38,107 bases of DNA. Origin: Chloroflexia bacterium. Its GTDB lineage: Bacteria; Chloroflexota; Chloroflexia; QHBQ01; JADMIH01. The position numbers were made by a program, and so were the translations under genes. The notes under the pieces are model-generated. The model did no database searches, was not told the origin of the DNA, and saw only the letters and a program-made list of their open reading frames with translations. Where the stretch lies: positions 1 to 38,107 of the forward strand of contig JBBQIC010000002.1 of the NCBI GenBank assembly GCA_038324555.1, read 5' to 3'. Shown here piece after piece: positions 12,576 to 36,215 of this stretch (its first letter is position 1; each line of letters opens with the position of its first letter).

Positions 12576-12696
12576 TGTGTCATTCTGAGCGGAGCGAAGA
12601 ATCACTCTCCCTGGCAAAGAGTCTAAGGAAAGCCCTGGTGATGACCCTGACCCCTATGACCCCGTAGTGATTCTTCGCTCCGCTCAGAATGACACA
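12576..12696. repeat. GTCATTCTGAGCGGAGCGAAGAATC-family palindrome (30-bp perfect arms, 61-nt spacer)
   Basis: Arms at 12576-12605 and 12667-12696 are exact reverse complements. It starts 12 nt after the metallophosphoesterase stop. Confidence 0.85.
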
Positions 12697-15236: not shown

Positions 15237-15308
15237 GAGTTCAGAGGCCCCGTAGGGGCGAACACAAGGTTCGCCCCTACGGGGCCTCCCCAAGTCTGAA
15301 CTCTTACC
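15232..15308. repeat. 77-nt nested palindromic element (variant of the GTAGGGGCG...CGCCCCTAC family)
   Basis: Outer arms ggtaagagttcaga (15232-15245) and tctgaactcttacc (15295-15308). Inner arms ggccccgtaggggcgaac and gttcgcccctacggggcc. The TAA stop of the DUF1116 gene (15234-15236) lies in the outer arm. Confidence 0.8.
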
Positions 15309-15756: not shown

Positions 15757-15862
15757 TGGTGAATGCTCCTTTTATTAAATGAGATTAGTTGGGTTAGAGT
15801 ATAATGGGGGTCAGTACTCAGCAATTATTATAGCACAGACGTTCTGTTCTGCCAAGGGGCAA

Positions 15863-17902
15863 ATGACCGATTTTATGCACAATTTAATCCCTGTGGCAAG
15901 GGATAGCGGCTCGCCTGACATCGCGTGGCGGCCCACCCCCTTCTACGTTGAACGCAGCCGCTTGCGCCATTTCATGGACCGCCAGGGTATTAGCTCAGTA
16001 GCCGAGTTACTTGCGTGGTCTACAAACGATCCGCCCTGGTTCTGGGACGCGGTAGTCAAGGACCTGGAACTTGAATGGTTCAAGCCATATAATCAGGCGC
16101 TTGACATCTCGAATGGTATTGAGTGGGCGCGCTGGTTCGTAGACGCACAGTACAACTACGTCCATGACGCGGTTGACAAGCACGCCCTTCGGCTGCGCCC
16201 GCAAGCCACAGCCCTCGCCTGGGAAGGCGAAGATGGCGAGGTCCGCACGCTTACTTATTCCCAGCTTTACGCGCAGGTAAACCAGGCGGCGAATGCCCTC
16301 AAATCACTGGGCATAGTCAAGGGAGACCGTATAGGCGTATTCATGCCCATGATACCGGAGACAGCGATTGCCACGCTAGCCATCTCCAAGATCGGGGCCA
16401 TTTTCACGCCTATCTTCTCCGGCTATGGCGGCGCTGCGGTCGCTTCGAGGCTCAGAGACTGCGAAGCCCGACTCCTCATTACAGCAGATGGTTTCTATCG
16501 AGCAGGCAAACAAATAGCGATGAAACAAGTCGCCGACGAAGCCGCGTCAGGTAGTCCCAGCCTGGAACATATGCTGGTGGTTCGCCGCGTGGGGAATGAA
16601 GTACCCTGGACGAGCGGGCGCGACGTATGGTGGCACGAACTGGTCGAATCGCAGAGCCAGGAGTGCCCAACCGAGCACACGGACGCCGAAGACCCCTACA
16701 TGATAATCTACACGTCCGGCACTACGGGTCGCCCAAAAGGGGCGGTACACGTTCACACAGGCTTCCCCATCAAAGCCGCCCAGGAGCTAGCCCACTGCTT
16801 CGACCTGCACGCAGGAGATACGCTCTTCTGGATCAGCGACATCGGCTGGATGATGGGACCATGGGCTATCGCGGGCGCACTGATGCTGGGAGCGACCTGC
16901 TTCCTGTACGAAGGCGCTATCAACCATCCGCAGCCCGACCGCGTGTGGGCATTGGTCGAACGCCACCGCGTCACCCACCTCGGCATATCGCCCACCGCCG
17001 TGCGCTCGCTCATGGGGCAGGGAGGGACGATGGACGATGGACGATGGACGATGGACGATAGTAACCATCGTCCATCGTCCGACCAATGGGTGCGCGCCCA
17101 CGACCTGAGCAGCTTACTCTTCCTGGCGGGCGCGGGCGAACCCTGGAACCCCGGCCCATGGCGCTGGCTGTTTGACGTGATTGGAGAAGGCAGACTTCCG
17201 ATTATCAACTATTCGGGAGGCACGGAGGTATCGGGGGGTATCCTCAGTTGCAACCCTCTCCTACCTCTGAAGCCTTGCGCCTTCAGCGCCCCCGTGCCCG
17301 GCATGGCCGCTGACGTGATAGACGAAGAAGGCAAGCCGGTACGCGGCGCGGTGGGTGAACTAGCCATCAGGCAACCCTGGCCCGGCATGACGAAGGGCTT
17401 CTGGGGTGATCCAGAGCGCTACCTAGACACCTACTGGTCGCGCGTCCCTGGTCTGTGGGTGCATGGCGACTGGGCGCGGGTTGACGAAGACGGCTTCTGG
17501 TATATCCTGGGTCGCTCGGACGACACCATTAAGGTAGCGGGCAAGCGCGTAGGCCCTGCGGAAGTGGAGTCGGCGGCGGTCGCGCACCCTGGAGTAGCGG
17601 AAGCGGCGGCTATCGGCGTACCCGATGCGCTCAAAGGCGAGGCTCTGGTGGTGTTCGTGGCGCTGCGTTCCGGCTACGCGGAAAGCGAAAAGTTGCGAGC
17701 CGAAGTCGAGGCGACAATCATCGCCCATTTGGGAAAATCACTCAAACCGCAAGCGGTAAAGTTCGTAAGCGACCTGCCGCGCACCCGCAACGGCAAAATC
17801 CTCCGCCGCCTGGTGCGAAGCAGCTATCTCGGCGAGCTACCAGGCGACCTGTCGGCCCTGGAAAACCACACAGCCCTTGCGGCTATCGCTGAAGCAAGAT
17901 AA
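15863..17902 (+). CDS. AMP-forming acyl-CoA synthetase (acetate/acetoacetate-CoA ligase family) carrying an in-frame repeat insertion
   Basis: ORF track 15779..17902. I prefer ATG 15863, preceded by aagggg. AMP-binding signature IIYTSGTTGRPKG, the GEPWNP motif and the C-terminal PRTRNGKILRR. Confidence 0.9.
   Translation: MTDFMHNLIPVARDSGSPDIAWRPTPFYVERSRLRHFMDRQGISSVAELLAWSTNDPPWFWDAVVKDLELEWFKPYNQALDISNGIEWARWFVDAQYNYVHDAVDKHALRLRPQATALAWEGEDGEVRTLTYSQLYAQVNQAANALKSLGIVKGDRIGVFMPMIPETAIATLAISKIGAIFTPIFSGYGGAAVASRLRDCEARLLITADGFYRAGKQIAMKQVADEAASGSPSLEHMLVVRRVGNEVPWTSGRDVWWHELVESQSQECPTEHTDAEDPYMIIYTSGTTGRPKGAVHVHTGFPIKAAQELAHCFDLHAGDTLFWISDIGWMMGPWAIAGALMLGATCFLYEGAINHPQPDRVWALVERHRVTHLGISPTAVRSLMGQGGTMDDGRWTMDDSNHRPSSDQWVRAHDLSSLLFLAGAGEPWNPGPWRWLFDVIGEGRLPIINYSGGTEVSGGILSCNPLLPLKPCAFSAPVPGMAADVIDEEGKPVRGAVGELAIRQPWPGMTKGFWGDPERYLDTYWSRVPGLWVHGDWARVDEDGFWYILGRSDDTIKVAGKRVGPAEVESAAVAHPGVAEAAAIGVPDALKGEALVVFVALRSGYAESEKLRAEVEATIIAHLGKSLKPQAVKFVSDLPRTRNGKILRRLVRSSYLGELPGDLSALENHTALAAIAEAR
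17025..17080. repeat. heptamer hairpin (GGACGAT)5-agtaacc-(ATCGTCC)2 inside the acyl-CoA synthetase CDS
   Basis: Read directly. Translated in-frame as (T)MDDGRWTMDDSNHRPSS. Confidence 0.9.
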
Positions 17903-17905
17903 AGC

Positions 17906-17967
17906 AGGAAATAGGAACACCGGTAGGGGCGCACGGCCGTGCGCCCCTACCGGTGTTCCTATTTCCT
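17906..17967. repeat. 62-nt perfect palindrome containing copy 2 of GTAGGGGCGCACGGCCGTGCGCCCCTAC; likely bidirectional terminator
   Basis: The arm aggaaataggaacaccggtaggggcgcacgg and its exact reverse complement. It starts 4 nt after the synthetase stop and lies between convergent genes. Confidence 0.85.
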
Positions 17968-20514: not shown

Positions 20515-21066
20515 CTAATTCTCCCCGAATGTACGTTTGAGCGCCTGATATATTTCCCGTTGAGTAGAACGAGGGGTGCGCCGTATTCTTGCAATTATGT
20601 TAAGCGCGCTTTCACTTGGAGTTTGGATGTTCGATCTGCCTTGATTACACGCCGAGCAAACGGCACGCAAATTCTCTGGATCATCGGTGCCACTCTGGCT
20701 GATAGGGATAATATGATCAACGTGAAGACGTACTTTTCTATTGGGATTGAATGGATCTGGGTCGCCCGCACCCGCACCGCATAACTGACAAGTGAAACCA
20801 TTTCTCTCCAAAATGAGGGTTCGTAGCTGAGGAGAAATGCTCCTCCCTATTGCAGGGAACCTATCAAGGCTTTCAAGAATATACTCACCAGGCTTCAAAT
20901 CATGACGGTCAACGTGAGACTTTATTTGCAGGCCTTCTTCGTCACGCAACTCCCTTATACGTCGTGCATACTCACTGATGCCCCCTACCTCTCTGACCTG
21001 CTGGGTAGTTACGACTTTTCCTACGTTAGCCTCGAAAAAAGACCTAATGCGGTCACGGGCGCTCAT
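20515..21066 (-). CDS. HNH endonuclease, probable restriction partner of the adjacent C5-methyltransferase
   Basis: ORF track, 183 aa. HNH/zinc motif CQLCG...HVDHIIPISQSGTDDPENLRAVCSACN with a wHTH-like N-terminal region. Sits directly downstream of the MTase on the same strand. Confidence 0.8.
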   Translation of the reverse strand: MSARDRIRSFFEANVGKVVTTQQVREVGGISEYARRIRELRDEEGLQIKSHVDRHDLKPGEYILESLDRFPAIGRSISPQLRTLILERNGFTCQLCGAGAGDPDPFNPNRKVRLHVDHIIPISQSGTDDPENLRAVCSACNQGRSNIQTPSESALNIIARIRRTPRSTQREIYQALKRTFGEN

Positions 21067-21122
21067 ATTGCTGTTGCACTCTCTTTAGGCTTATTGCGCT
21101 TCTCTGTTTCTTTGAAAAGGCA

Positions 21123-22286
21123 TTAGGCAACTTGTTGGTTTTCCTTCATTAAAAGAAGTGAGTATACACAACTCGCAATGTGTGAGGCTAATAACGGCGG
21201 GACTGCATTTCCGATCTGTTTAGCGATTTCAATCTTACTACCGCAAAAATGGAATGAGTCCGGAAATGACTGAAGCCTAGCGGCCTCACGATGGGTGATT
21301 GGGCGATGTTGTAATGGATGTAAGTAGCGCCCTTTCTCCGGCTTGAAGAATTCCGTCCTAATAGTAAACGCGGGTCGATCCCACCACAGACGCCCAAATA
21401 GATCCGTTCCTCCGCTCTTCTTGCGAATCCAGCATGAGGGTGTTAGTTCGAGAGCGCGTCTCTGCAAGTCAAAGCGATTCATTCCTTCATCAGGCACAGC
21501 TTTATAACGCTCTAAGCTCATTTGGGTGGGCGACCGACCAAAATGCAAGTCCAACGGAGGCGGTTCCTTACGTATCTCGGTACCAACCGGAGCGGTAAGG
21601 TCCCCGATGGCATCTCGAACCGTACTCCAAGGTTGGAGACGGTGGGGATGTCCATCAGATGTGTCATATACGGTAATGGCTATGCCAAGCTTTGGATTAT
21701 GATGCGTAGCTGGTGGTGGGAATATAGAGGAGGGGTCTGCAAAGCGGCAGCCAATAATAAAAGCTCTCCATCTAATTTGAGGAACGCCAAAATCAGCCGC
21801 GCATAACTTTCCCCATGCCATTTTGAAACCAAGCGTTTTCGCTACTTGGATTATTTCCTTGTGCTCTGGCGAGCCTAGCAACTGAGGCACATTTTCCATT
21901 ATGAATAATTGAGCATCAGCCCGTTCAACCACTTCAAAAAATGGTCGCCACAACTGCTTCCTAGTATCAGTTTCTCGATTCTTATTTAGTAAGCTGAAGC
22001 CCTGGCAAGGTGGTCCCCCAACTACCACATCAGCACGGGGAATGGTGACCACTGGGTTGTTAAGAATGTCTACAATATCTCCATAGGTACAGTGCTCACC
22101 AAAATTGCTGTTATATGTGGCGACAGCATATTTGTTGAAATCGTTTGCCCAAACAGGTTCAAAATCATAACCGAATTCTCCTGTGAAGCCCAAAGTTAAT
22201 CCGCCTGCCCCGGAGAACAGGTCTATTAGGCGGAAACGATGATACCTATTGCGGTGTGGAGCTTCTAATTGAAGGGAATTGAGCAT
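21123..22286 (-). CDS. DNA (cytosine-5)-methyltransferase
   Basis: ORF track 21123..22421. I prefer ATG at 22286 (aagga upstream), which removes the overlap with the CoxL-like gene. Motif I DLFSGAGGLTLGF, motif IV GGPPCQGFS, motif VI MENV, motif X QIGNAVPPLLA. Confidence 0.9.
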   Translation of the reverse strand: MLNSLQLEAPHRNRYHRFRLIDLFSGAGGLTLGFTGEFGYDFEPVWANDFNKYAVATYNSNFGEHCTYGDIVDILNNPVVTIPRADVVVGGPPCQGFSLLNKNRETDTRKQLWRPFFEVVERADAQLFIMENVPQLLGSPEHKEIIQVAKTLGFKMAWGKLCAADFGVPQIRWRAFIIGCRFADPSSIFPPPATHHNPKLGIAITVYDTSDGHPHRLQPWSTVRDAIGDLTAPVGTEIRKEPPPLDLHFGRSPTQMSLERYKAVPDEGMNRFDLQRRALELTPSCWIRKKSGGTDLFGRLWWDRPAFTIRTEFFKPEKGRYLHPLQHRPITHREAARLQSFPDSFHFCGSKIEIAKQIGNAVPPLLASHIASCVYSLLLMKENQQVA

Positions 22287-22381
22287 TAGTAATCCTTGCT
22301 TGGGAGCACTTGGCGCATAGTTTTCTGTATAATACCACAATCGTAGCTCGGAGGAAGTGTTATTCTCCAAAGCCACTGGGG

Positions 22382-24778
22382 TTAGGGATTGATTGACCCA
22401 CTCCCCTCCACCAACTCCCACAACCTGCTCGGACTCAACGGTATCTCCGTTATCTCGAACCCCTCTATACCCAGCGCGTTTTCCAGCGCCTGGACGAACA
22501 ACGGCCCAACAGGTATCGCCCCGGCCTCGCCTGCGCCTTTGACGCCGATGGGGTTGAGGGGAGAGGGGGTCTCCTCGTGGCCTACTTCTACGCGCGGCAC
22601 GTCGGTGGAGGTAGGCAAGAGGTAGTCCATGAAGGAGGCGTTGAGTAGTTGGCCGCCCTCGTCGTAGATTAGCTGCTCGTAGAAGGCGTTGCCGATGCCC
22701 TGGGCCACGCCGCCATGCACCTGCCCTTCGAGGATTAGAGGGTTTATCACCCTGCCGCAGTCGTGGACCACCACGTACCGCAATATCTTCACCTTGTAAG
22801 TTTCGGTGTCAACTTCGACTATCATGGCGTGCGCACCTGCTGCGGTGGCTCCCATTGGCGGGCCGAAGTAGGCGGTGGCTTCCAGGCCGGGTTCGGTTCC
22901 GGGTTGGACGGCCCCACGCAGGGGATTGGCTTTGGCTGCCAGGTCTGCCAGGCTGACGCGGGCGTTGGGCGCGCCTCGCACCTGGGCGTAGCCACCCACT
23001 AGCTCGATGTCCTGCTCAGAGACCTCCATCGCGTCGGCGGCGAGCTTTAGCGCCTTCTCGCGCACCCTTATTGCCGCCTCGTGAACGGCGGAGCCTGCCA
23101 CCGTCGCGCCTCGGCTGGCGAACGTCCCTGTGCCCCAGTTGAATTGCCCTGTGTCGCCCGTGGAGACGAGTATTTCTTCTACACGCACGCCCAACACTTC
23201 GGCTGCTATCTGCGCGAAGGTGGTGTAGTGCCCCTGTCCTTGCGTGCCCACGCCCGTGACGACAGTGACCTTGCCGCTAGGCTCGATCTGTATGCGCGCG
23301 CCTTCGTAGGGGCCGATGCCGGTGCCTTCGACGTACATGACGAGGCCGATACCCACCCGCTTGCGCGGCGACGATGGACGATGGACGATGGACGATGTGT
23401 TTTCGCTTTTGGGACTATCGTCCATCGTCCATCGTCCATCGTCCTTATGAAAGTCGTCCCACCCTATCATCTTCTTGGCTTTGTCGAGGATTGGCTCGTA
23501 GTTGCCGCTGTCGTAGGTGAGGTGGGTGAAGTCCTGGAAGATAATCTGGTTGTTGTATGGGAACTGGTCGGGCGGGATGAGGTTGCGGCGGCGCAGTTCT
23601 AGTGGGTCTATGCCCAGTTCTTTGGCGGCAAAGTCGAGTAGGCGTTCAATGACGAATACGCCGTGCTGCCGTCCCGCGCCCCTGTAGGGGGTGACGATAA
23701 TCTTGCTGGTGAACACCGCCTTGAACTCGGTGTAGTAGTTGGGGATGACGTATGGGCCAAGCAGTGTGCATTGAGTATTGAGGGGCACGGTCAGGCCGTA
23801 GGGGTCGTATGCGCCGTTGTCGTGCAGGAAAACGTCGCTTACGCCAAGGATTTTGCCGTCTCGCGTCAGGGCTATCTCCGATTGGTGGATTTGGCCGCGC
23901 TCATGGGTCATGGCTGTGAAGTTTTCGAGGCGGTCTTCGATCCACTTGACGGGACGACCCAGGCGCATCGCCGCCCAGGGCACAAGCGTCTCCTCTGGAT
24001 AGAACATCATGATCTTCGGCCCGAAGCCTCCACCCACAAACGGCGCTATCACGCGCACCTGCCGCTCCGATAGGTCGAGCATGGCGGCAAGACCGTTGCG
24101 GATCGGGATGGGGGCCTGCGTTGAGTCCCACACGGTGAGGTGGTGGGCCAGGTGATCGAATTGCGCCACCACGCCCCGTGTCTCCATGGGCGCTGCTGTG
24201 CCCCGGTCGTAGAGGAGGCGGCGCGAAATCACCAGGTCGGCGTGGGCGCGGGCGGAGTCGTAATTGCCCTTGGTCTGGATGACGTGGGCGGCCATATTGG
24301 AGCCTACGTCTTCGTGTACCAGAGTGGCGCTCTCTTCCAGGGCGGCTTCGAGGTCCACTATAGCGGGAAGCGGCTCGTAATCAACCATGATGGCATCGGC
24401 GGCGTCCTCGGCCAGGTAGCGGTTCTCGGCGATGACCATGACTACAGGTTCGCCAACGTAGCGCACCTTGTCCTTGGCAAGCTGCCCGGCGGTGCGCTGG
24501 TTGAAGACGATATGCTGGGTGGGTGGAGGTGGAACAAGTAACGGCGATGGCTGCCAGTAGTCGCCCAGGTCCTTTGCGATATAGACCGCGATTACGCCCG
24601 GCATAGCTTTCGCGGCCTCAACGTCTATACCCAGTATCAGGGCATGGGCGTAGTCGCTGCGCTTGAAAGCTACGTGCGCCATATGGGGCAAATGAACATC
24701 ATCTACGAACTGAGCGCGGCCCATCAGCAATCGTGGGTCTTCGTTTCGCTTGACGCGAGCGCCGAACATTCCGGTCAT
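22382..24778 (-). CDS. molybdopterin-dependent hydroxylase large subunit (form-II CoxL-like, xanthine dehydrogenase family) carrying an in-frame repeat insertion
   Basis: ORF track, 798 aa. The N-terminus RVKRNEDPRLLMGRAQFVDD is typical. The active-site loop PYRGAGR is the form-II type, not the form-I AYRCSFR. Confidence 0.9.
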   Translation of the reverse strand: MTGMFGARVKRNEDPRLLMGRAQFVDDVHLPHMAHVAFKRSDYAHALILGIDVEAAKAMPGVIAVYIAKDLGDYWQPSPLLVPPPPTQHIVFNQRTAGQLAKDKVRYVGEPVVMVIAENRYLAEDAADAIMVDYEPLPAIVDLEAALEESATLVHEDVGSNMAAHVIQTKGNYDSARAHADLVISRRLLYDRGTAAPMETRGVVAQFDHLAHHLTVWDSTQAPIPIRNGLAAMLDLSERQVRVIAPFVGGGFGPKIMMFYPEETLVPWAAMRLGRPVKWIEDRLENFTAMTHERGQIHQSEIALTRDGKILGVSDVFLHDNGAYDPYGLTVPLNTQCTLLGPYVIPNYYTEFKAVFTSKIIVTPYRGAGRQHGVFVIERLLDFAAKELGIDPLELRRRNLIPPDQFPYNNQIIFQDFTHLTYDSGNYEPILDKAKKMIGWDDFHKDDGRWTMDDSPKSENTSSIVHRPSSPRKRVGIGLVMYVEGTGIGPYEGARIQIEPSGKVTVVTGVGTQGQGHYTTFAQIAAEVLGVRVEEILVSTGDTGQFNWGTGTFASRGATVAGSAVHEAAIRVREKALKLAADAMEVSEQDIELVGGYAQVRGAPNARVSLADLAAKANPLRGAVQPGTEPGLEATAYFGPPMGATAAGAHAMIVEVDTETYKVKILRYVVVHDCGRVINPLILEGQVHGGVAQGIGNAFYEQLIYDEGGQLLNASFMDYLLPTSTDVPRVEVGHEETPSPLNPIGVKGAGEAGAIPVGPLFVQALENALGIEGFEITEIPLSPSRLWELVEGSGSINP
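23370..23444. repeat. heptamer hairpin GACGAT(GGACGAT)3, 20-nt loop, (ATCGTCC)4 inside the CoxL-like CDS
   Basis: Read directly. Translated from the minus strand as DDGRWTMDDSPKSENTSSIVHRPSS. Confidence 0.9.
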
Positions 24779-24798
24779 GGTATGTCTCCCTTCGGGAA

Positions 24799-24862
24799 GG
24801 GTGAGGGAATAGGATTTAAGAACTACTCCCTCACCCTACTCCCTCACCCTACTCCCTCACCC
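24799..24862. repeat. 13-mer repeat element: one inverted copy (gggtgagggaata) plus three tandem direct copies of tactccctcaccc
   Basis: Read directly. Tandem copies are at 24824-24836, 24837-24849 and 24850-24862. It lies in the 90-nt spacer between the CoxS-like stop and the CoxL-like start. Confidence 0.85.
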
Positions 24863-24868
24863 TATTTC

Positions 24869-25372
24869 CTACAATACTCCCCCCACCTCCGTGCTCTCCT
24901 GCCCCCGCATCTTTTCTGAGGCCAGCTTCACCGCGTCAACGATGTTCTGGTATCCGGTGCATCGGCAAAGGTTGCCGGAGATGGCCTGGCGTATCTCTTC
25001 CTCTGTGGGGTCGAGGTTTTCTTTGAGGAAGGGCAGGATCGTCATCAGGAAGCCTGGGGTGCAGAAGCCGCATTGCAGACCGTGGGCTTCCCAGAATGCT
25101 TGTTGGAGCGGATGCAGGTTGGCGGGATCGTTGGACAGCCCCTCCACGGTCATGATTTCGTGCTCGTTGGCCTGGACCGCGAACGTCAGGCAGGAGCGCA
25201 CGGGCACACCGTCGAGCAGTATCGTACAAGCCCCGCACACGCCGTGCTCGCAGCCTACGTGCGTGCCCGTCAACTCTAGCTCGTGGCGCAGGAAGTCGCT
25301 GAGGAGCAGGCGAGGCTCCACGGTGCGGGTGTGGGTCTTGTTGTTGACGATTAGGGTGATTTCATGTTGCAT
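24869..25372 (-). CDS. (2Fe-2S)-binding small subunit of the molybdenum hydroxylase (CoxS-like)
   Basis: ORF track, 167 aa. Cys clusters CEHGVCGACTILLDG and CGFCTPG ... CRCTGY. Confidence 0.9.
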   Translation of the reverse strand: MQHEITLIVNNKTHTRTVEPRLLLSDFLRHELELTGTHVGCEHGVCGACTILLDGVPVRSCLTFAVQANEHEIMTVEGLSNDPANLHPLQQAFWEAHGLQCGFCTPGFLMTILPFLKENLDPTEEEIRQAISGNLCRCTGYQNIVDAVKLASEKMRGQESTEVGGVL

Positions 25373-25495
25373 AGAGTTTCTCCTCGCAGATGGACGAACC
25401 GCAAAGACGCAAAGAGCGCAAAGTTACGCAAAGAACAATCAAATGATCATACCTAGACTTGTCGCCTGTTGTACAGTCTATGTTGAGGCTCAGTC

Positions 25496-25900
25496 TTACT
25501 TCTTACCTCGACGAAACAGGCTTTTGAGTGCGCCGGTACATGAACTGCGTTGGCTGTAATCAAAGTTTACCAGTAATTTTTGGTCCGTAATTTCCGTATC
25601 TGCAATGAGGTGGTCGGCTATGTGCCTGGCGTACTCCGGCCACTCATCCTTACGCAGGTTGTAGGGACTCATAAAGTTGTGATCACGCGCATAAATCCAC
25701 TCATCGTAGAAGTTCCACGCGATACCAAGCTGATGGGAGGCTCGGGGCCACAGATAATCAATCTCTTCATAATCCTCTCCCAGGAGTTGCAGTTCGCCTT
25801 TCTCATGCAAATTGGCGTCTCTTCTCAGAACTTCGACCATTAGTTGCTTGCTGGCTTCAACTATATTGTCTTTGAGTTCCTGAATTCTTTCTTCACTCAC
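25496..25900 (-). CDS. hypothetical protein (acidic, no recognised domain)
   Basis: ORF track, 134 aa. Clean ORF, AT-richer than its neighbours. Confidence 0.6.
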   Translation of the reverse strand: MSEERIQELKDNIVEASKQLMVEVLRRDANLHEKGELQLLGEDYEEIDYLWPRASHQLGIAWNFYDEWIYARDHNFMSPYNLRKDEWPEYARHIADHLIADTEITDQKLLVNFDYSQRSSCTGALKSLFRRGKK

Positions 25901-25955
25901 TTATCAATCTCATCTTCTTAGTGAATTGGGGAAACTACGATTACGAACTCAAAAC

Positions 25956-27197
25956 TCACGACGCTTTTTCCGTTTTGGGTTGTATCCCCATCTGCGTGTT
26001 GCGGATGTCGGCGTTTAGAACAACTACCACCGCCAGGAAAACAAGCCACGCTGAGAAGGCCAGCACTGCCGGTCCGGCCCCGAACTGGCTGACCAGGAAG
26101 CCGCCAAGCAGCGCGCCTATGGGTTGGAAGCCATATATTATCAGGCGATAAGTGCTGTTTACCCGACCTTGCATCTGGTCGGGTATGAGTGGCAGGCGGT
26201 AGGCCAATTGGGTCACGGTGAACACTGGAGCCGTAATGTATGCCAGGGCGGTGATGGCTCCGAGCGCGATTATGTTGGGTGCGATAGCGTACAAGGGAAA
26301 CAGCAGCGCCATGAGCCACACGCAGCCTATAGTTATTTGCCTGTAGGCGAACCGCTTCTGCACCCGCCCTGCGAAGGTCGCGCCTATTATCGCCCCTATC
26401 GAGCCGATGCTGAATATGAAGCCTATCTCCGCTTTGCTCACGTTCATGCCAAGCGCCAGCCCGATAATAAATATCTCGGACGCAGTGAACACTACGTTGA
26501 CCGCGCCCGTAAGAAAAGCTACGAAACGGATGAGCGAGTGGCTCCAAAGCCAGGCCAACCCCTCCTTTATCTCGATGAGGAGGTGGCGGTTGGCGGCGGG
26601 GGCGCGTTCCTCCTGGAAGGGGGTCTTGATGAAGAAAAGTGAGAACACCGACAGCGCGTATGAAATCGAGTCTATCAGGAATGGCACGGTTCGTCCCAGG
26701 AACTGGTAAACAATGGTGCCCAGCCCCGGCCCTGCGAACTCGGCTATGGCGGTGGTAGCTTGGTTCTGCGCTCCCGCGTCGGGCAGTTGCTCCTTGGACA
26801 CTACCCTGGGCAGGGCGGCCACCTGCGCTACGTTGAAGAAGACCGAGAGTGTGCCTTCGATGAGGGCTACCAGATACAGTTGCCAGATGCTAGGACCGCC
26901 CAGGGCCATCGAGAGCGGCACAGTGGCGAAGGCCAGGCTCCGGAGCGTGTCGCACCACATCATCACGCGCTTGCGGTCCCACCTGTCTATCAGCGCGCCC
27001 GCCGGGAGGCTGAACAACACCAGGGGAAGCCTGTAGCAGGCGACCAGTATGCCTGCTGGCAGCAGAGACCCCGTGATGTCGTACGCCAGCAGGGGAAAGA
27101 TTATCTCCGAGAATCTGCTCCCCAGCACGGACACCACCTGCCCGCTCCACAGGAGCATGTAGTCGCGGTTGTGCCAGAGTGAAGGTTTGTTGTTCAT
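25956..27197 (-). CDS. MFS transporter (DHA3/EntS-like)
   Basis: ORF track, 413 aa, about 12 hydrophobic segments. The N-terminus NRDYMLLWSGQVVSVLGSRFSEIIFPLLAY and the motif LPAGALIDRWDRKR are typical. Confidence 0.85.
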   Translation of the reverse strand: MNNKPSLWHNRDYMLLWSGQVVSVLGSRFSEIIFPLLAYDITGSLLPAGILVACYRLPLVLFSLPAGALIDRWDRKRVMMWCDTLRSLAFATVPLSMALGGPSIWQLYLVALIEGTLSVFFNVAQVAALPRVVSKEQLPDAGAQNQATTAIAEFAGPGLGTIVYQFLGRTVPFLIDSISYALSVFSLFFIKTPFQEERAPAANRHLLIEIKEGLAWLWSHSLIRFVAFLTGAVNVVFTASEIFIIGLALGMNVSKAEIGFIFSIGSIGAIIGATFAGRVQKRFAYRQITIGCVWLMALLFPLYAIAPNIIALGAITALAYITAPVFTVTQLAYRLPLIPDQMQGRVNSTYRLIIYGFQPIGALLGGFLVSQFGAGPAVLAFSAWLVFLAVVVVLNADIRNTQMGIQPKTEKAS

Positions 27198-29636: not shown

Positions 29637-30506
29637 CTAATGTGCCTTCTCTACCGCTCGCGCCAACGTCCTGCGCGCCAACACCTTCACCAAATGCCTG
29701 CGATAAGCAGCTGTCGCGTGTATATCGGATGGCGGGTCAATCTCACTATCAATGGCTTCTGAGGCAGCGCGGATAACATCCTCGGTGGGCTGCGTGCCGC
29801 GTAATACGTCGCTGGCAGCAAGAACTTGGACAGGGCCGTCGCCGATAGAGAAGAAGACCAGCTTGCTTTCAGCAACCGTACCATCGGGCGCGAGCGTGAC
29901 GACCGCCGCCGCGCCTGCGAGGGCGTAATCACCGTGGCGGCGGGCTACCTCCTCGAAGGCCGTGCCGGTTCGCTCAGGTATGGGCGGGATGATTACTTCC
30001 GCCAGTATCTCCTCCGGCTCAAGCGCGGTAGTGAATATGCCCAGGAAGAACTCGGAGGCGGGGATGAGGCGCTGGCCCTGGCTGCTTTGCGCCTGCATCT
30101 GCGCGTCCAGCGCCAGCATTAGCGAGGGCAGTTCCGCCGCAGGATCGGCGTGGGCCAGGGAGCCGCCTATTGTGCCTCGATTGCGAATCTGAGGGTGGGC
30201 TATGTCGGGCATCGCCTCGGTGATAAGGGGAGCGCGGCTCGCGACGAGCGTGCTGCGCTCTACTGTGCGGTGTCGGGTCATAGCGCGTATACGCAGCCCG
30301 CCCTCTCCATCGGCATGGACGCCGAACAGGTCGGGAATACCGTTCAAGTCTACCAGTATAGAAGGCTGGGCAAGTCGAAAGTTCATGCTGGGCACAAGGC
30401 TCTGTCCGCCTGCCAGCAGCTTAGCCTCGTCCCCGTACTCGGCAAGCAAGCTTAGAGCTTCGTCCCGTGTCACCGGAGCGTAATATTCAAAAAGAGACGG
30501 TTTCAT
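29637..30506 (-). CDS. FAD-binding medium subunit of the molybdenum hydroxylase (CoxM-like)
   Basis: ORF track, 289 aa. Motifs LLAGGQSLVPSMNFR and RNRGTIGGSLAHADPAAELP are typical of the FAD_binding_5/CO_deh_flav_C family. Confidence 0.9.
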   Translation of the reverse strand: MKPSLFEYYAPVTRDEALSLLAEYGDEAKLLAGGQSLVPSMNFRLAQPSILVDLNGIPDLFGVHADGEGGLRIRAMTRHRTVERSTLVASRAPLITEAMPDIAHPQIRNRGTIGGSLAHADPAAELPSLMLALDAQMQAQSSQGQRLIPASEFFLGIFTTALEPEEILAEVIIPPIPERTGTAFEEVARRHGDYALAGAAAVVTLAPDGTVAESKLVFFSIGDGPVQVLAASDVLRGTQPTEDVIRAASEAIDSEIDPPSDIHATAAYRRHLVKVLARRTLARAVEKAH

Positions 30507-30523: not shown

Positions 30524-30686
30524 AGAAACCGCGAAGACGCAAAAACGCTAAGTTTACCTTAAGAATATTGCACCGCAGAGGCGCAGAGAACGCAGAGGAC
30601 CAATAATAAAGGTCCTCTGCGTTCTCTGCGCCTCTGCGGTGAATAAACATAGCAATTCTTTGCGTCTTTGCGTCTTCGCGGTTTCT
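30524..30686. repeat. nested double hairpin: 20-bp perfect outer stem enclosing a 31-bp perfect inner stem
   Basis: Outer arms agaaaccgcgaagacgcaaa (30524-30543) and tttgcgtcttcgcggtttct (30667-30686). Inner arms at 30571-30601 and 30611-30641 have a CGCAGAG core repeated three times per arm, with loop aataataaa. Confidence 0.9.
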
Positions 30687-31510
30687 TAACGTTCTTCTAC
30701 GAACGCCACTATCCGAGCAAAGGCCGCTTCACCACCCTTGAAGCGGAAGGGGAAGCAACCCAACCATACGCGCTGGTTGAGTACTTCGTCTACCTGGCCG
30801 CCGACGTTTTCGGCGTGGAATACGCCCCTGGGGAAGAGGAGGGTGTGCGTGCATTGATAGTCTTCCATCCATGGGAAGGCTTCGTCCATGCTCATGCCTA
30901 TCTTGGCCTCTACCTCCGGGATGAGGTCGGGGCGGGCTACGCGGACTTTGGTGTTGAAGGGGTGATCTGTGGAGATAGCGTCAATCGCCATCCAGCGAAT
31001 GCCCCTGTCCAGCACCCAATCGCAGAAGGCGCGCTGCGGGCCAGGGTGACGCAAGAAACAGCGCGGCAGGTCGGGCTTTTCGTCGTTATGGACTTTGTAC
31101 CAATCCTCGTTGTAGTAGTGGTGGTAGCCGGTGTGGATCACCAGGATGTCGCCGCGCTCGATCTTGATGCCGGTCTTTTTCTCCCACATCTCGAAGTGCT
31201 CAGGGCCATAGATGTCGTAGTCGCCGATGCCGAATTGCGAGAGGTCTACTATGCAGGCGGGGCCAAAGAGGGTGTCAATGGGGATGCCCGAAATGTCCGG
31301 CCCTGGATCATAGAAGTGGTAGGGCGAGTCGAGGTGGGTGGCGATATGGTTGGTGCTGGATATGTGCTGGGCGTTCACGCCCTCGAAGGCGATCTTCTTG
31401 ACCCATTTGATGGTTGGCCCTTCGTAGAAAGCGAAAGGCGGCGAGTCCATGCTGAAGTTCTGCGAGAGGTCCAGCACTTTCACCTTGCTCAGGTCATACG
31501 GTACGTACAT
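30686..31510 (-). CDS. cyclase-family protein (kynurenine formamidase-like metal hydrolase)
   Basis: ORF track, 274 aa. The motif NHIATHLDSPYHF corresponds to the HxGTHxDxPxH signature of the 'putative cyclase' family. Confidence 0.85.
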   Translation of the reverse strand: MYVPYDLSKVKVLDLSQNFSMDSPPFAFYEGPTIKWVKKIAFEGVNAQHISSTNHIATHLDSPYHFYDPGPDISGIPIDTLFGPACIVDLSQFGIGDYDIYGPEHFEMWEKKTGIKIERGDILVIHTGYHHYYNEDWYKVHNDEKPDLPRCFLRHPGPQRAFCDWVLDRGIRWMAIDAISTDHPFNTKVRVARPDLIPEVEAKIGMSMDEAFPWMEDYQCTHTLLFPRGVFHAENVGGQVDEVLNQRVWLGCFPFRFKGGEAAFARIVAFVEER

Positions 31511-31592
31511 TGTTACACCCTCCGTTCAGGTAAATGAAGAATAGGCTGACATAAATAGACGCAGCCGGGAAACGTTGAGTTATTATACTAGA

Positions 31593-31613
31593 GAAACGTG
31601 AAACGTGAAACGT
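31593..31613. repeat. (GAAACGT)3 tandem heptamers, with one extra copy at 31569-31575
   Basis: Read directly. The heptamer is the same one (GTGAAAC register) used in the 10725-10790 hairpin. Confidence 0.8.
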
Positions 31614-31694
31614 AAAAGGAAGTATTGCCTTTCTGTAGCCCTGGGTGCTATACTGAGGTCGGTATTCGTGCGCCGTATAATGTCTGTGGTCAAC

Positions 31695-31857: not shown

Positions 31858-31933
31858 GCCGAGGTAGCTCAGTTGGTAGAGCATGCGACTGAAAATCGCA
31901 GGGTCATCAGTTCAAGTCTGATCCTCGGCACCA
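31858..31933 (+). tRNA. tRNA-Phe (anticodon GAA), CCA encoded
   Basis: Hand-folded. Acceptor GCCGAGG/CCTCGGC, D arm GCTC-AGTTGGTA-GAGC, anticodon arm TGCGA-CTGAAAA-TCGCA, T arm ATCAG-TTCAAGT-CTGAT, then ACCA. Confidence 0.9.
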
Positions 31934-31987
31934 AAATTAGGCACAAAAATAGCTCAGATGTTCCGTATTCCGAGCTATTTTATCATT

Positions 31988-32036
31988 ATGTAGCCAAATA
32001 TGTAGCCAAACTTATGCTATGGCTACATTGGCTACA
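31988..32036. promoter_or_regulatory. array of four TGTAGCCAA-type sites (two direct, two inverted): candidate recombinase or repressor binding sites
   Basis: Sites are atgtagccaa (31988-31997), atatgtagccaa (31998-32009), tggctaca (32020-32027) and ttggctaca (32028-32036). Confidence 0.4.
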
Positions 32037-32220
32037 GTATATTTATCGCCTTTATCACCAGTGGTTTGCGATGGGACAGGCCACACGCGGCCACGCATAT
32101 GCAACTTGTTGGTGTTAGCAATTTCTAACCCACACTGTTCACGGGGATTGACGGATGTGGTATTATTAGGTATGGACATGGAGCTACAACCTCCTTGTTC
32201 TAAGGCGGTCCGGTGATAGA

Positions 32221-32294
32221 AACACCGAGCCGGATTCGAACCGACGATAGTCGCTTTGCAAGGGGACCGCGTTGGACCACTTCGCCACCTGTGC
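32221..32294 (-). tRNA. tRNA-Cys(GCA)-like sequence with a defective anticodon stem; possible pseudogene or recombination remnant
   Basis: Canonical 74-nt length on the minus strand. Good T arm (GTCGG-TTCGAAT-CCGGC), a D arm typical of tRNA-Cys (GCGA-AGTGGTCCA-ACGC) and loop TTGCAAA. The anticodon stem pairs at only 2 of 5 positions, and the acceptor stem has 4 Watson-Crick pairs, 2 GU pairs and 1 mismatch. Confidence 0.4.
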
Positions 32295-32360
32295 CTGGAT
32301 GGAAGATAGGGTAGCCTCAGTTTCCAGCGAAAGCTACCCTATTAATTATCAATAACAAAG

Positions 32361-32843
32361 TTAGGGCTTCCCCTCCGAGTTCGGTCCATCGCCCTGACCT
32401 TGCTGTATTACGTTGAACATTGGACTAGGAACCACACGAAACGTTGTACGGCCCTTTTCTGCAAGTTCATGCGTTTTCTCATCTGGCAATAGAACCTTAA
32501 CAACGTAAGTGCCAAGATTTTCAAACTGCATGGGTGTCGGCACGACTAGTTGAACACGTTGTGATTGACCGGGTGCTGTACCAGGAGGTCTACCCATTTC
32601 AAAGCCGCCTTCTACTTTCACAAGCTGCTTGCCGTCCTGGTCATCTATATATAGTTCAACCTTATGGGGTTCGTTGGTCTCGGTCCAAGCGACCTCAATA
32701 CCAACAGCGATTGCAATCATTTGTGCGGCAGGAAGAGTATTGACAAGGACTGAATCCCAACCACCCCCCAAAAGGTAGAGTTTGCCCCCTACGATTTGGG
32801 CCGCATCTGCCAAAATTAACCAATCGAGTTTCACTATTGACAA
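32361..32843 (-). CDS. hypothetical protein (possibly DUF6941-like)
   Basis: ORF track, 160 aa. Clean ORF followed by hairpin atagggtagc/gctaccctat (32306-32342). The domain guess rests only on the N-terminal pattern LILADAAQIVGGKLYLLGGGWD. Confidence 0.6.
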   Translation of the reverse strand: MSIVKLDWLILADAAQIVGGKLYLLGGGWDSVLVNTLPAAQMIAIAVGIEVAWTETNEPHKVELYIDDQDGKQLVKVEGGFEMGRPPGTAPGQSQRVQLVVPTPMQFENLGTYVVKVLLPDEKTHELAEKGRTTFRVVPSPMFNVIQQGQGDGPNSEGKP

Positions 32844-32964
32844 CCTCCGATTTGTGTAGTATAATAATTAGACTTATGTAGTTTACTAAGTCAACGGCTG
32901 TAGCCCCAATTGTAGTTGAAACTGTAGTGCAAGACTATACGTATTGTAATATATTGCTTTAATT

Positions 32965-33264
32965 TTGTCAAGACCACGAGTTAGATTTACGTATGACGAC
33001 GCCAACGAAGCTAAATTTGCTTCGCATGGTTTGACTGCCGACCAAGTTGACGATGTATTAGATGGGCAGTTTACAATTATGTCGAACAGGAAAAATCGAA
33101 CAGGCACGCATTTAGTAATCGGGCGCGACAGCAGTGGCATATGTCTGACCATTCCGATTGTACCAACACAAGAGCCGGGGTTATGGCGACCAATCACGGC
33201 TTGGCGCTGTAAAAGCTCAGAGCAAGCAAAACTCAGCAAAGCAAAGAAGGGAGTAACAGTGTGA
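32965..33264 (+). CDS. brnT: BrnT-like (DUF497) type II toxin
   Basis: ORF track, 99 aa, TTG start. FTYDDANEAKFASHGLT resembles the DUF497 opening F-W-D-x-x-K-x-x-x-N-x-x-K-H-G, and the C-terminal WRPITAWRCKSSEQAKL resembles the (I)ISARKAT...E tail. It shares a 4-nt overlap (GTGA) with the next ORF. Confidence 0.6.
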   Translation: MSRPRVRFTYDDANEAKFASHGLTADQVDDVLDGQFTIMSNRKNRTGTHLVIGRDSSGICLTIPIVPTQEPGLWRPITAWRCKSSEQAKLSKAKKGVTV

Positions 33265-33650
33265 ACGACAAAGACATCGAAAACTTAGAGAACCCTGAAA
33301 ACTGGGATTGGGAGAATGCAGAAACGGTATCTGGTACAAAGAATCGCCGCACAATTGTATCAGTGGCATTCCCACGTAGCGATTTCAAGAAAGTAGCCGA
33401 ATGCGCGCGGCAGATCGGGATGAGTGTATCCGCCTTTGTTCGCCATTCAGCAGTGGATACAGCGGAGAAGGTTTCAAGCGCGAACAATAAAGCCAAACTG
33501 ATTTCCTCAGAACCTGGCACTTATGCCTTGCCAGGCAATGTAGGACTAACAACGTGGCGAATGTCAAACGCGAAAGAAAGTAATAAGCCGCTAGAACCTT
33601 TCACCACAGACGCTAAGCAACCTCGTGCAATAGAGTTAATCAGTAATTAA
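33261..33650 (+). CDS. brnA: BrnA-like antitoxin (RHH/CopG-type C-terminal domain)
   Basis: ORF track, 129 aa, GTG start overlapping the toxin stop. The segment RRTIVSVAFPRSDFKKVAECARQIGMSVSAFVRHSAVD fits a ribbon-helix-helix antitoxin. Confidence 0.55.
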   Translation: MNDKDIENLENPENWDWENAETVSGTKNRRTIVSVAFPRSDFKKVAECARQIGMSVSAFVRHSAVDTAEKVSSANNKAKLISSEPGTYALPGNVGLTTWRMSNAKESNKPLEPFTTDAKQPRAIELISN

Positions 33651-33655
33651 TCGTC

Positions 33656-33708
33656 AAGTGCAATAAGTAAAGACTGGCGTATTACGCCAGTCTTTACTTA
33701 TTGCACTT
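33656..33708. terminator. bidirectional terminator hairpin between brnA and the integrase gene
   Basis: A roughly 25-bp perfect stem, agtgcaataagtaaagactggcgta/tacgccagtctttacttattgcact, followed by ttttcggg. Confidence 0.7.
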
Positions 33709-33733
33709 TTCGGGCAAAATGGGCAAAGCCCCC

Positions 33734-34927
33734 CTAACCCCTATCCCTATAGCCTTCGCTCCACAGCAAAGCGCCCATCTTGTCGGCGGCTTCTTGCTCT
33801 TGGCGGGGTAGCACATGTGCATATATATCGGCGGTAGTGGCAATCTTTGAGTGGCCCAAAATCTGGCTCACTACTTTCAATGTGATGCCTTGAGCCAGCA
33901 TCAGAACGGCGGCACTATGCCGGGTGTCGTGGAATCTAATCTTAGGTAGTCCCGCCTTCTCCAACAACCCTACAAGTTGGCGATTGAGATTGCGCGGCTC
34001 TATGCCTGTGCCGACTTCACTGGTAAATACCAAGTCCCATTCGTTACCCTTCCATGCCGTGCCCGCTTTCAGGCGTTCCTCAAGCTGGCGCTTCCTATGG
34101 GTGCGTAGGGCGTTCATCAGGGGCTTGGGTAGGCGGATGGTACGATTGCTTTCCTCAGTCTTTGTGTCCAGACGTTGCAGAGTAGAGCCCTTGCCGATGC
34201 GGAGTAATGACCCGCATACGTGGATGGTAGACTTCTCAAAATCCACATCACACCAACGCAACCCTAATGCTTCGCCACGCCGGAGGCCAAGCGCAAGGGC
34301 AACGCTATATAGCCCCTCTAGTCTATGACCCTTGAGTACCGTCAAGAATGCCCTGGCCTGTTCCTCATTCAAATAGGAGCCTTTGAACTTTGGCTTGGAG
34401 GATGCCGTTTCCTTTTGCCTCACAATCTTCGCCGGGTTACGATAGACCAGGCCATCCTCTACGGCCATCTCCAACGCCCTGCGTAAGACGGCGCGTGCTA
34501 GTTTGGCAGTGGTAGGCGATAAACCCGCTTCGACTTCGGCGGCTTGGAACTCGCGTAGGTGCTGTGGAGTGAGCTTCGTAAGTTGAATGCGCCCCAAGCG
34601 CGGGGTCAGGTGACAGCGTACCGATACTTCGTATTGAATATAGGTTGCTGGGCGCACTTCATTCTTTACAGTCTGTAGCCACGAGTTGAGAAACTGGCTT
34701 ATGGTTAGGCGCTCATTACTAGAAATGGGTTTGCCGACCTGCTGATCGGCAAGCACAGTTTTCAACTTCTCGCTTACTTCCTTGCGGGTCTTGCCATAGA
34801 AGACCTTGCGCTTGCGCTTGCCGTCCGGCCCATAGCCCAGATTGACGCTCCCTACCCACTTTCCATCAGATGCGCGCTGATAAATACCACCTTCGTTGTG
34901 CCCTCGCCTCGTGTCTTTGCTTGCCAT
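33734..34927 (-). CDS. tyrosine-type site-specific integrase (phage integrase family)
   Basis: ORF track, 397 aa. The catalytic region has LGLRRGEALGLRW (Arg I) and HDTRHSAAVLMLAQG...LGHSKIATTADIYAHV (H-x-x-R ... Y). The N-terminus is an arm-binding-like GGIYQRASDGKWVGSV. Confidence 0.9.
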   Translation of the reverse strand: MASKDTRRGHNEGGIYQRASDGKWVGSVNLGYGPDGKRKRKVFYGKTRKEVSEKLKTVLADQQVGKPISSNERLTISQFLNSWLQTVKNEVRPATYIQYEVSVRCHLTPRLGRIQLTKLTPQHLREFQAAEVEAGLSPTTAKLARAVLRRALEMAVEDGLVYRNPAKIVRQKETASSKPKFKGSYLNEEQARAFLTVLKGHRLEGLYSVALALGLRRGEALGLRWCDVDFEKSTIHVCGSLLRIGKGSTLQRLDTKTEESNRTIRLPKPLMNALRTHRKRQLEERLKAGTAWKGNEWDLVFTSEVGTGIEPRNLNRQLVGLLEKAGLPKIRFHDTRHSAAVLMLAQGITLKVVSQILGHSKIATTADIYAHVLPRQEQEAADKMGALLWSEGYRDRG

Positions 34928-35008
34928 AGTTGCTTCTCCTAACTGTTCCTCCGACTAAACCTCTGAGCGTATGTACTGTACTGTGCTGTATCTTTGCTCT
35001 TGGCCTGC

Positions 35009-35419: not shown

Positions 35420-35447
35420 TTCCTGAGTCTCCTTCTGCCTTACGGAT

Positions 35448-36117: not shown

Positions 36118-36186
36118 TCACACTTGGCTCTCATTCGTCCGGGTTCCCCTCAATCTTGCAGCCCTCATATTCACTTGTCTATAATC

Positions 36187-36215
36187 ATTATAACATATGT
36201 TATATAACTTGTCAA
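36187..36215 (-). promoter_or_regulatory. consensus sigma70 promoter reading leftward (HNH to integrase operon)
   Basis: On the minus strand: TTGACA (36215-36210), 17-nt spacer, TATAAT (36192-36187). Confidence 0.65.

Follow-up and report, generated by a model that had tools for sequence, protein, structure and literature searches.

How a protein-coding gene can carry a perfect hairpin built of short tandem repeats and still encode an intact enzyme is the question raised by a locus of a Chloroflexia bacterium (GenBank assembly GCA_038324555.1, contig JBBQIC010000002.1), of which positions 1 to 38,107, hereafter the window, were analysed. At positions 23370-23444, a 75-nt element made of two inverted arrays of the heptamer GGACGAT lies inside a gene, here called CoxL-like, for the molybdopterin subunit of an enzyme of the xanthine dehydrogenase (XDH) family, and a sister copy lies in an acyl/acetyl-CoA synthetase-like gene of the same window. 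Taken together, the data make it probable that a dispersed family of heptamer-array hairpins has one of its copies here, placed in a tolerant interdomain linker and translated there as a disordered loop.

The hairpin and its host gene

On the forward strand the element reads GACGAT(GGACGAT)3, gtgttttcgcttttgggact and (ATCGTCC)4, with two arms of 27 nt each that are 100% complementary and stand 20 nt apart (coordinates in Table 1). Tandem Repeats Finder assigns to each arm a period of 7, 4.0 copies and 100% matches. With at most one mismatch, the 14-mer GGACGATGGACGAT has 11 occurrences in the window, every one of them at 23370-23444 or at the sister copy (17025-17080), compared with 0.00 in shuffled sequences. 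The predicted folding energy amounts to -62.7 kcal/mol (z = -7.6) for RNA of the transcript strand and to -38.7 kcal/mol (z = -9.4) for DNA. In addition, both window elements are found, with equal arm numbers, in the independent assembly GCA_038239605.1 (loci L111 and L119). The hairpin described in the initial annotation is thus confirmed by its sequence, by arm complementarity, by the shuffles and by a second assembly. The AGT noticed there at the start of the loop holds for both window copies but not as a general trait, since only 3 of 129 arrays elsewhere precede AGT; as a family signature it was rejected, the first loop bases mostly extending a degenerate unit.

The open reading frame (ORF) 22382-24778 runs through the element on the minus strand without any stop (...MIGWDDFHK DDGRWTMDDSPKSENTSSIVHRPSS PRKRVGIGLVMYVEGTG...) and resumes with PRKRVGIG; the tryptic peptides predicted from the insert include WTMDDSPK and SENTSSIVHRPSSPR. 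The large-subunit gene had been described as interrupted, which is right in so far as the insert is in frame and free of stops, although this is not a simple interruption, the native linker EEGARLRAAG being replaced.

Pfam recognises in the protein an Ald_Xan_dh_C domain (a/b-hammerhead, residues 20-138), MoCoBD_1 (154-400) and MoCoBD_2 (472-728). By sequence, the solved structures closest to it are those of M. smegmatis CoxL (8uem) and the quinoline oxidoreductase Qor (1t3q), with which the AlphaFold model reaches TM-scores of 0.82-0.85, and the invariant residues of the catalytic family all align. In the large subunit of form I aerobic CO dehydrogenase, the active-site loop is AYXCSFR. The present protein does not have this motif: its loop is P364-Y-R-G-A-G-R370 (PYRGAGR), which we take to be of the form II/XDH type and not that of a true CO dehydrogenase, and 'CoxL-like' is the right name for the host gene. 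Compared codon by codon with a 96% relative, the gene shows 131 synonymous and 17 non-synonymous differences, from which it follows that the gene is under purifying selection.

The insert is placed between the two Mo-cofactor-binding domains. In the AlphaFold model, residues 446-472 form a coil between helix 440-445 and strand 473-485, with a predicted local distance difference test score (pLDDT) below 50 at 450-470. The large subunit of nicotinate dehydrogenase (3hrd) consists of two natural polypeptides, matching residues 16-399 and 474-785 of the query, and this natural split indicates that the family tolerates even a chain break at the linker.

The linker across CoxL-like orthologues

Among 120 CoxL-like orthologues (68-98% identity) from Chloroflexota metagenome-assembled genomes (MAGs), no internal site other than this interdomain loop has insertions of at least 6 residues, the other length differences being terminal. 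Most orthologues have ~10 residues there, EEGARLRAAG or a variant, followed by KRVGIG, while ~21 of the 120 carry other loop content, nearly always heptamer-encoded. The inserted peptide is not conserved in orthologues lacking the repeat, which have EEGARLRAAG, in keeping with its initial description as an insert.

The loop DNA was read for eight of the ~21 non-native orthologues, and its content varies widely. P0003, whose protein is 81% identical, has the same right arm, (ATCGTCC)3ATCGTC, still perfect over 27 nt, next to a decayed left arm. P0011 has a GGACGAC/GTCGTCC hairpin with (TCACGCA)4 nested within it, P0028 a GGACGAA/TTCGTCC hairpin and P0039 a GGTTCCT/AGGAACC hairpin. In P0007, the non-complementary arrays (AAGTCCA)4 and (GAATTCA)3 have one GGACGAT between them and fold at -23.5 kcal/mol; in P0002, the sister of the window sequence, the loop is made of (GAAATCA)n and (CTCAAAA)n and folds at -10.9 kcal/mol.

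In a bootstrapped neighbour-joining tree from which the loop was left out, none of 300 bootstraps unites the array-bearing orthologues as a monophyletic group, and the native-loop sequences P0004, P0025, P0027 and P0036 are interspersed among them. Besides, differing heptamers occur within supported groups, namely Q, P0001 and P0002 (94%), P0007 and P0011 (100%), and P0039, P0041, P0031 and P0032 (100%). As a lost native linker cannot be regenerated by deletion, the loop has been colonised more than once, and a single ancient insertion in the CoxL clade was rejected as the sole explanation on these two grounds. Colonisation probably took place four times or more, and the linker content has turned over afterwards. 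One linker of one enzyme family, repeatedly colonised by different arrays, would thereby provide a natural record of how linker sequence is gained and lost.

The sister copy in the synthetase-like gene

The sister copy stands as originally described, with arms of 5 and 2 units and a loop of 7 nt, against 4 and 4 units and 20 nt in the CoxL-like gene. Among 120 orthologues, the window and its 99% relative alone have its 57-nt insert, which follows GGA (Gly) and precedes GAC (Asp); in the 118 others, GQG-D(H/Q)W is uninterrupted. This exact addition bears out the proposal that the two copies are independent insertions. No target-site duplication is present, since the ambiguity of the GGA/insert/GAC junction does not exceed 1 nt. 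In other synthetase orthologues, peptides of the heptamer type are found at other positions, EGRRTKDERSIPSSFVLR and NPKSKV being two examples.

Open frames and in-gene copies elsewhere

Because 7 is coprime with 3, successive units of a heptamer array pass through all three frames: GGACGAT yields GRWTMDD, ATCGTCC yields IVHRPSS, and neither strand contains a stop codon. Coprimality and the stop-free unit together explain the earlier remark that the same type of peptide arises from either strand, and the structure of the unit would explain tolerance, the frame staying open in any phase and on either strand. Stop-freeness in six frames was rejected as a special adaptation, since it is shared by 50% of heptamers (57% after weighting for composition) and can count as a prerequisite but not as a signature. 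In genes, heptamers with a single open strand (GAATTCA, GAAATCA, CTCAAAA, TCACGCA) occur in the open orientation. Within genes, a change by a single unit is a frameshift and would therefore be purged.

In other Chloroflexota genomes, Pfam confirms at least eight in-frame host genes, the copies lying mostly between Pfam domains. In valyl-tRNA synthetase (ValRS) the copy separates the catalytic from the anticodon-binding domain, and in a MiaB-like enzyme the UPF0004 from the radical-SAM domain; the other hosts are EPSP synthase, RecJ, a Ski2-like helicase, a MalT-type regulator, a PMT-family glycosyltransferase and an FGE-sulfatase-domain protein. All of these peptides are of the DDGRWTMDD...SSIVHRPSS type, and one arm is often decayed. 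These hosts, together with the orientation of the one-strand-open heptamers, corroborate the suggestion that copies are filtered for open frames. That two of two GGACGAT hairpins lie inside coding sequences is correct for the window but does not hold generally: elsewhere, a long ORF reads through no more than about one array in six to eight, and among the matches listed, 35 of 124 arrays are in ORFs that reach at least 60 codons on both sides.

A dispersed repeat family

A census of (GGACGAT)3 in species-representative genomes, the window's own genome not being among them, gave more than 110 loci among the matches listed, and at least 131 arrays were found in at least 113 loci. Most of the loci listed belong to MAGs of Chloroflexia, Roseiflexaceae, Anaerolineae and Caldilineaceae, often several to a genome. 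No common flanks were seen at these array loci. The arms have an almost uniform polarity: among the matches listed, 37 of 124 arrays have an inverted partner within 220 nt as GGACGAT...ATCGTCC, against 1 of 124 in the reverse arrangement, and exact pairs are arranged GGACGAT...ATCGTCC in 22 of 22 cases. Reverse-arranged pairs with a gap of up to 30 nt number only 4 in the whole JGI metagenome collection; viral contigs gave 1 versus 0, counts too few to be informative. Across the family the arms stand 11-146 nt apart, a range that the sister copy with its 7 nt widens to 7-146 nt, the stems are 14-27 bp or longer, and the arrays are degenerate at their edges.

Many copies have a composite architecture, TAGGAGACGRAA-(ACGCMAAG)3-4-RTTAGGATTGTT-...-(CTCAGTC)n-TCATCACTCC, in which a core of ~110 nt lies between GGACGAT and ATCGTCC ends. 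Among the matches listed, 11 copies spread over at least six MAGs have this core, in either orientation and between flanks that are unrelated. The loop GGTAGGAGATGCT of the short hairpin L098 keeps an edge of the core, and the CoxL loop AGTCCCAAAAGCGAAAACAC has CGAAAAC in common with the left end of the composite element of other Chloroflexia MAGs, at a similar distance from the arm; for these reasons the simple hairpins look like minimal derivatives of the composite element, which is suggestive only. The heptamers TCACGCA, GAAACGT and CTCAGTC are common to different MAGs, and the window shares the first two. Arrays of (GAAACGT)3.4 were also noticed in several Chloroflexia MAGs (L002, L036, L003, L030, L099); in L002 and L036, two of them stand ~290 nt apart, as if flanking a small unit.

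No Rfam family matches the hairpin or the composite element. The repeat and peptide strings were not found in a bacterial context in the literature, and a limited literature search returned no description of heptamer hairpins in Chloroflexi, of this Chloroflexota family or of recurrent linker colonisation. A 51-aa synthetic GRWTMDD/SSIVHRPSS query retrieved only 64 short ORFs of 34-89 aa (P0241-P0304), and a 31-aa phmmer query against 1.8 billion representatives retrieved 1 match, both searches being uninformative for long proteins. The short public 'hypothetical proteins' of this type are probably intergenic arrays miscalled as genes. The arrays also give rise to odd low-complexity inserts in annotated enzymes of Chloroflexota MAGs.

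Comparison with a close relative

The only close relative, GCA_038239605.1, is 96-98% identical at the nucleotide level. Its alignments with the window over 4131 nt and 2471 nt, which include both in-gene hairpins and two intergenic arrays, contain no gap, while the CoxL-like gene shows 21% divergence at 4-fold sites (0.213). Within the CoxL element the relative differs by one substitution (W450G), P471S lying just outside. Copy number being the same in this one relative, the slippage put forward in the initial annotation was not observed there, though slippage may have kept the arrays up. With neither copy number nor frame differing, the element does not behave as a phase-variable simple repeat. 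The comparison did not provide the empty site that had been looked for, both elements being present in this one close relative, and an exact 23-mer scan of JGI metagenomes for strain variants of the CoxL junction gave 0 matches.

Origin of the insert

The favoured reading is that of a dispersed, non-autonomous Chloroflexota family of two inverted GGACGAT arrays around a variable centre, of which one copy would have entered the DNA for the flexible linker between the Mo-cofactor domains, or replaced an earlier array in it. Survival in the linker would be due to the absence of stops on either strand, to a net length that keeps the frame and to a linker tolerating any sequence. The element is predicted to be transcribed and translated as a disordered loop of ~27 residues, which would do nothing for the enzyme while the gene stays under purifying selection. 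The family would have spread like a transposable element with inverted ends, yet without target duplication. Cases of nesting (P0011, the composite elements, window 30530-30690), together with turnover between sister lineages, suggest that existing hairpins and arrays attract further insertions, in which case a colonised loop would be a lasting hot spot.

A broader proposal may be advanced tentatively, although we consider it rather doubtful: an undescribed class of very small Chloroflexota mobile elements, with heptamer-array ends and no target duplication, would prefer existing hairpins or arrays and so nest in and replace one another, a seeded linker becoming a long-lived landing pad and the class a regular source of linker length and sequence variation in housekeeping proteins. 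In a more radical variant, the inverted arrays would be made by templated heptamer addition to both 3' ends of a double-strand break, which would account for the uniform GGACGAT...ATCGTCC polarity as well as for centres that are not conserved.

Several observations weigh against a dispersed family as the source of the insert. First, with the native linker gone, the CoxL site offers no clean empty-site comparison, and close strains showed no filled-versus-empty polymorphism, the sole relative having both elements unchanged. Secondly, GGACGAT arrays also occur, among the matches listed, in Acidobacteriota, Bacteroidota, Planctomycetota and others, so that descent from one family is not certain, and the loops differ so widely between copies that these cannot be simple replicas of one master sequence. 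Thirdly, a target-site duplication is lacking, no transposase adjoins the copies examined and no mobilising enzyme was identified, a systematic whole-genome search not having been made. Finally, the element has 1 change in 75 nt, where ~5 would be expected at the mean rate of the gene and ~16 at the 4-fold rate, which may reflect constraint on the element rather than neutrality, or else homogenisation of the array. The low-divergence stretch, however, also spans 88 nt of upstream coding sequence. Besides, divergence from L111 over 22402-26532 is mosaic: the 1754 nt upstream of the CoxL-like gene (24779-26532) contain 3 differences, the 2388 nt of the gene itself 164, and the boundary lies ~230 nt inside the gene, which suggests recent homologous recombination between strains. 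Given a quiet stretch that reaches beyond the element and strains that are mosaic, such recombination is an adequate alternative for the low divergence.

Among the other explanations, the one that survives best, while unlikely, is a local origin: a proto-repeat in the linker would have grown by slippage, a fold-back template switch would have copied it in inverted form over the native linker, and recurrence would reflect a mutational bias. The degenerate, microsatellite-like array edges, the resemblance of the native linker DNA GGCGAAGGGGCACG to GACGAAGG, the replacement rather than mere interruption of native CoxL residues and the unconserved loops are all in line with it. So are the report that, among the long simple repeats of bacteria, those with heptanucleotide units are the most common (PMC4679880, in the part that cites Mrazek 2007) and the leading place of Chloroflexus in a survey of bacterial satellites (PMC6749651). 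Nevertheless, the synthetase copy is an exact addition that leaves the native sequence intact on both sides and has no local proto-repeat, the same heptamer and arm polarity recur at more than 100 unrelated loci, and different MAGs have the heptamers TCACGCA, GAAACGT and CTCAGTC in common. The conserved ~110-nt composite core flanked by many copies, in turn, is something that local slippage cannot produce.

Slightly less likely again is a retained function, be it as an mRNA hairpin that pauses ribosomes between the domain halves or controls mRNA stability, as an acidic/basic Ser-rich linker peptide, or as arrays that bind a heptamer-recognising protein. The low divergence from the relative, with 0 synonymous changes where ~4 are expected, the stability of the hairpin and the right arm kept perfect in P0003 point in this direction, as does the interdomain placement here and in ValRS, MiaB-like and FGE-sulfatase-type proteins; the latter is, however, equally predicted by a filter for tolerated sites, and the low divergence can be explained by recombination, as said above. 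Most orthologues do without any insert, sister lineages have unrelated and partly non-palindromic heptamers (P0002 and P0007, with their weak folds), and P0003, like several copies inside genes elsewhere, has one decayed arm. As to an assembly error or a pseudogene, assembly errors can create palindromes and the source is probably a metagenome-derived genome, but this is hardly credible, since two independent assemblies agree on arm number and loop and thereby establish the hairpin as real, and since the ORF is intact, all invariant residues of the catalytic family align, the model matches CoxL and Qor, and synonymous changes far exceed non-synonymous ones.

Comparison with known repeat systems

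The Chloroflexota family resembles, by analogy, both the Rickettsia palindromic elements (RPE) and the heptamer repeats of Cyanobacteria. RPEs (Ogata et al. 2000) are palindromic repeats found in frame in many unrelated genes, according to the passages devoted to them in PMC10969869 and PMC3733652, and the latter mentions that they end in CGTC, a motif contained in every ATCGTCC unit. As far as these passages go, both systems consist of short dispersed palindromes, in frame in unrelated housekeeping genes, that add a peptide at fold-compatible positions, with no dedicated transposase known. In the same accounts, however, RPEs have ~100-150 bp and a conserved non-repetitive consensus and peptide, whereas the present copies are 57-75 nt of tandem 7-nt units with an unconserved loop. 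The host also differs, being a member of the Chloroflexota and not an intracellular alpha-proteobacterium. The element thus shares the in-frame palindrome with RPEs but not their unique consensus of 100-150 bp. It would represent a second, independent case of selfish palindromic DNA in protein-coding genes, after Rickettsia, whose genome is reduced, while the present hosts are free-living bacteria with large genomes. To our knowledge, repeated colonisation and turnover at one loop have not been described for RPEs.

The short tandemly repeated repetitive sequences (STRR) of Cyanobacteria have the units CCCCAGT, TTGGTCA and CAACAGT. Elhai et al. reportedly described in 2008 small dispersed repeats (SDR) nested in such heptamers. 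The present arrays are likewise head-to-tail 7-nt repeats at many sites, with GGACGAT as the unit in place of those of the STRRs. Further likenesses, within what PMC5861425 relates of STRRs and SDRs, are the dispersal of tandem heptamers in filamentous bacteria, a heptamer set common across genera, and nesting. In contrast, heptamers and phylum are different, and STRRs are described as mainly intergenic while paired inverted hairpin arrays lie in protein linkers here. Through this family it may be possible to track down the machinery behind the making and spreading of heptamer arrays, which is sought for the STRRs as well.

Arrays of TAACTGA are known from Beggiatoaceae, Cyanobacteria and Bacteroidetes, just upstream of start codons (PMC4679880). 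As here, one heptamer is found in scattered, often filamentous, bacteria, and coding potential sets the tolerated sites; TAACTGA, however, contains stop codons and is hardly ever inverted, with 1 indirect set in 170 (PMC4679880), whereas GGACGAT has no stop on either strand and is typically arranged in hairpins.

Dispersed hairpin-forming inverted repeats are also a feature of repetitive extragenic palindromes (REP), of the hairpins that these form in pairs (REPIN) and of miniature inverted-repeat transposable elements (MITE). Like MITEs, the present elements have terminal inverted repeats and dispersed copies, but they lack a target-site duplication. REPs are occasionally intragenic, and their CGTC families have stems of 8-9 bp and loops of 4-5 nt (PMC3733652). 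The present family differs from REPs and REPINs in having no single terminal tag, with CGTC in every unit, and arms of 14-60 nt of tandem units instead of stems of 8-9 bp, and is therefore no short tagged palindrome. No linked REP-associated tyrosine transposase (RAYT) or insertion sequence was seen at the copies, a whole-genome search not having been made. REP-like palindromes of the GTAG type, which constitute a separate family, do occur between genes of the window (Table 1), and GTAG REPs have been reported for Chloroflexi (PMC3733652).

Other repeats and genes of the window

Table 1. Position of the two GGACGAT hairpins, their host genes and further features in the window.
Feature	Coordinates	Strand	Remarks
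CoxL-like molybdopterin subunit, xanthine-dehydrogenase-family enzyme	22382-24778	-	798 aa, intact ORF
5' arm on coding strand, (GGACGAT)4	23417-23444	-	(ATCGTCC)4 on forward strand; first G completes codon K445
20-nt loop	23397-23416	-	Coding strand AGTCCCAAAAGCGAAAACAC, encodes S-P-K-S-E-N-T
3' arm on coding strand, (ATCGTCC)3ATCGTC	23370-23396	-	27 nt, perfect complement of 5' arm
Insert codons 446-472, DDGRWTMDDSPKSENTSSIVHRPSSPR	23363-23443	-	Replaces ~10 residues (EEGARLRAAG) of orthologues
Sister copy, G(GGACGAT)5-AGTAACC-(ATCGTCC)2	17024-17080	+	57 nt, in frame, encodes GTMDDGRWTMDDSNHRPSS between GQG and DQW
Acyl/acetyl-CoA synthetase-like gene, host of sister copy	15779-17902	+	Pfam ACAS_N, AMP-binding, AMP-binding_C
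CoxS-like gene	24869-25372		
CoxM-like gene	29637-30506		
HNH endonuclease	20515-21066		
C-5 cytosine DNA methylase	21123-22421		Overlaps 3' end of CoxL-like gene by 40 nt
Hairpin of 13-nt units	24795-24881		CTACTCCCTCACC x3.2 facing GGGTGAGGGAATAGG; directly upstream of CoxL-like start codon
(CGCAAAGA)4 array, related	25392-25434		GGACGAA before it
Nested octamer hairpins	30530-30690		Outer arms GAAGACGCAAA.../...TTTGCGTCTTC; inner arms 31 nt, perfectly complementary, units CGCAGAGG/CCTCTGCG
(CGTGATG)n/(TCACGCA)n heptamer hairpin	10721-10790		Between convergent genes; overlaps 3' end of epimerase ORF 9807-10742
GAAACGT array	31593-31617		Just upstream of tRNA-Phe
GTAG-type REP-like palindromes	5641-5708, 15244-15288, 17906-17967		GGTAGGGGCGCACGG / CCGTGCGCCCCTACC and variant; intergenic
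Perfect inverted repeats, common core GTCATTCTGAGCGRAGCGAAGAATC	9219-9317, 12576-12696		31-36 nt
tRNA-Gln	9418-9492		
tRNA-Phe	31858-31933		
tRNA-like sequence	32219-32295	-	Odd; 4-base anticodon per ARAGORN
Tyrosine integrase	33734-34927		
N6/N4 DNA methylase	36770-37987		
Secreted-type proteins with C-terminal dockerin domains	963-4082, 4178-5632		

The neighbours of the CoxL-like gene comprise the CoxS-like and CoxM-like genes and an amidase. The pair of methylase and HNH endonuclease genes (20515-22421) lies between the CoxL-like gene and the amidase; it looks like a mobile insertion, since the orthologous loci L114-L117 hold other genes in its place. The hairpin of 13-nt units has a counterpart in the close relative: in L119 (9455-9530), the same 13-mer hairpin stands at another locus, beside the glyoxalase gene, where the window has other repeats.

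Among the heptamer and octamer arrays of the window, that at the epimerase gene supplies the last codons of the protein (V-M-R-D-A) and its TGA stop (10740-10742), and the nested octamer hairpins are situated between the CoxM-like gene and the ORF 30668-31537. Of the two inverted repeats with a common core, one (9219-9317) is found ~100 nt upstream of tRNA-Gln and the other (12576-12696) in a spacer of ~1.25 kb, which in L119 of the relative measures ~0.3 kb and has a different sequence.

Towards the end of the window, tRNA-Phe is followed by the tRNA-like sequence and then by the integrase and N6/N4 methylase genes, and the whole stretch 31858-37987 may be an element integrated at a tRNA. At the other end, the first of the two dockerin proteins (963-4082) has long Pro/Thr/Asn-rich repeats with periods of 12 and 18 nt (1662-1725, 2262-2300, 3213-3562).

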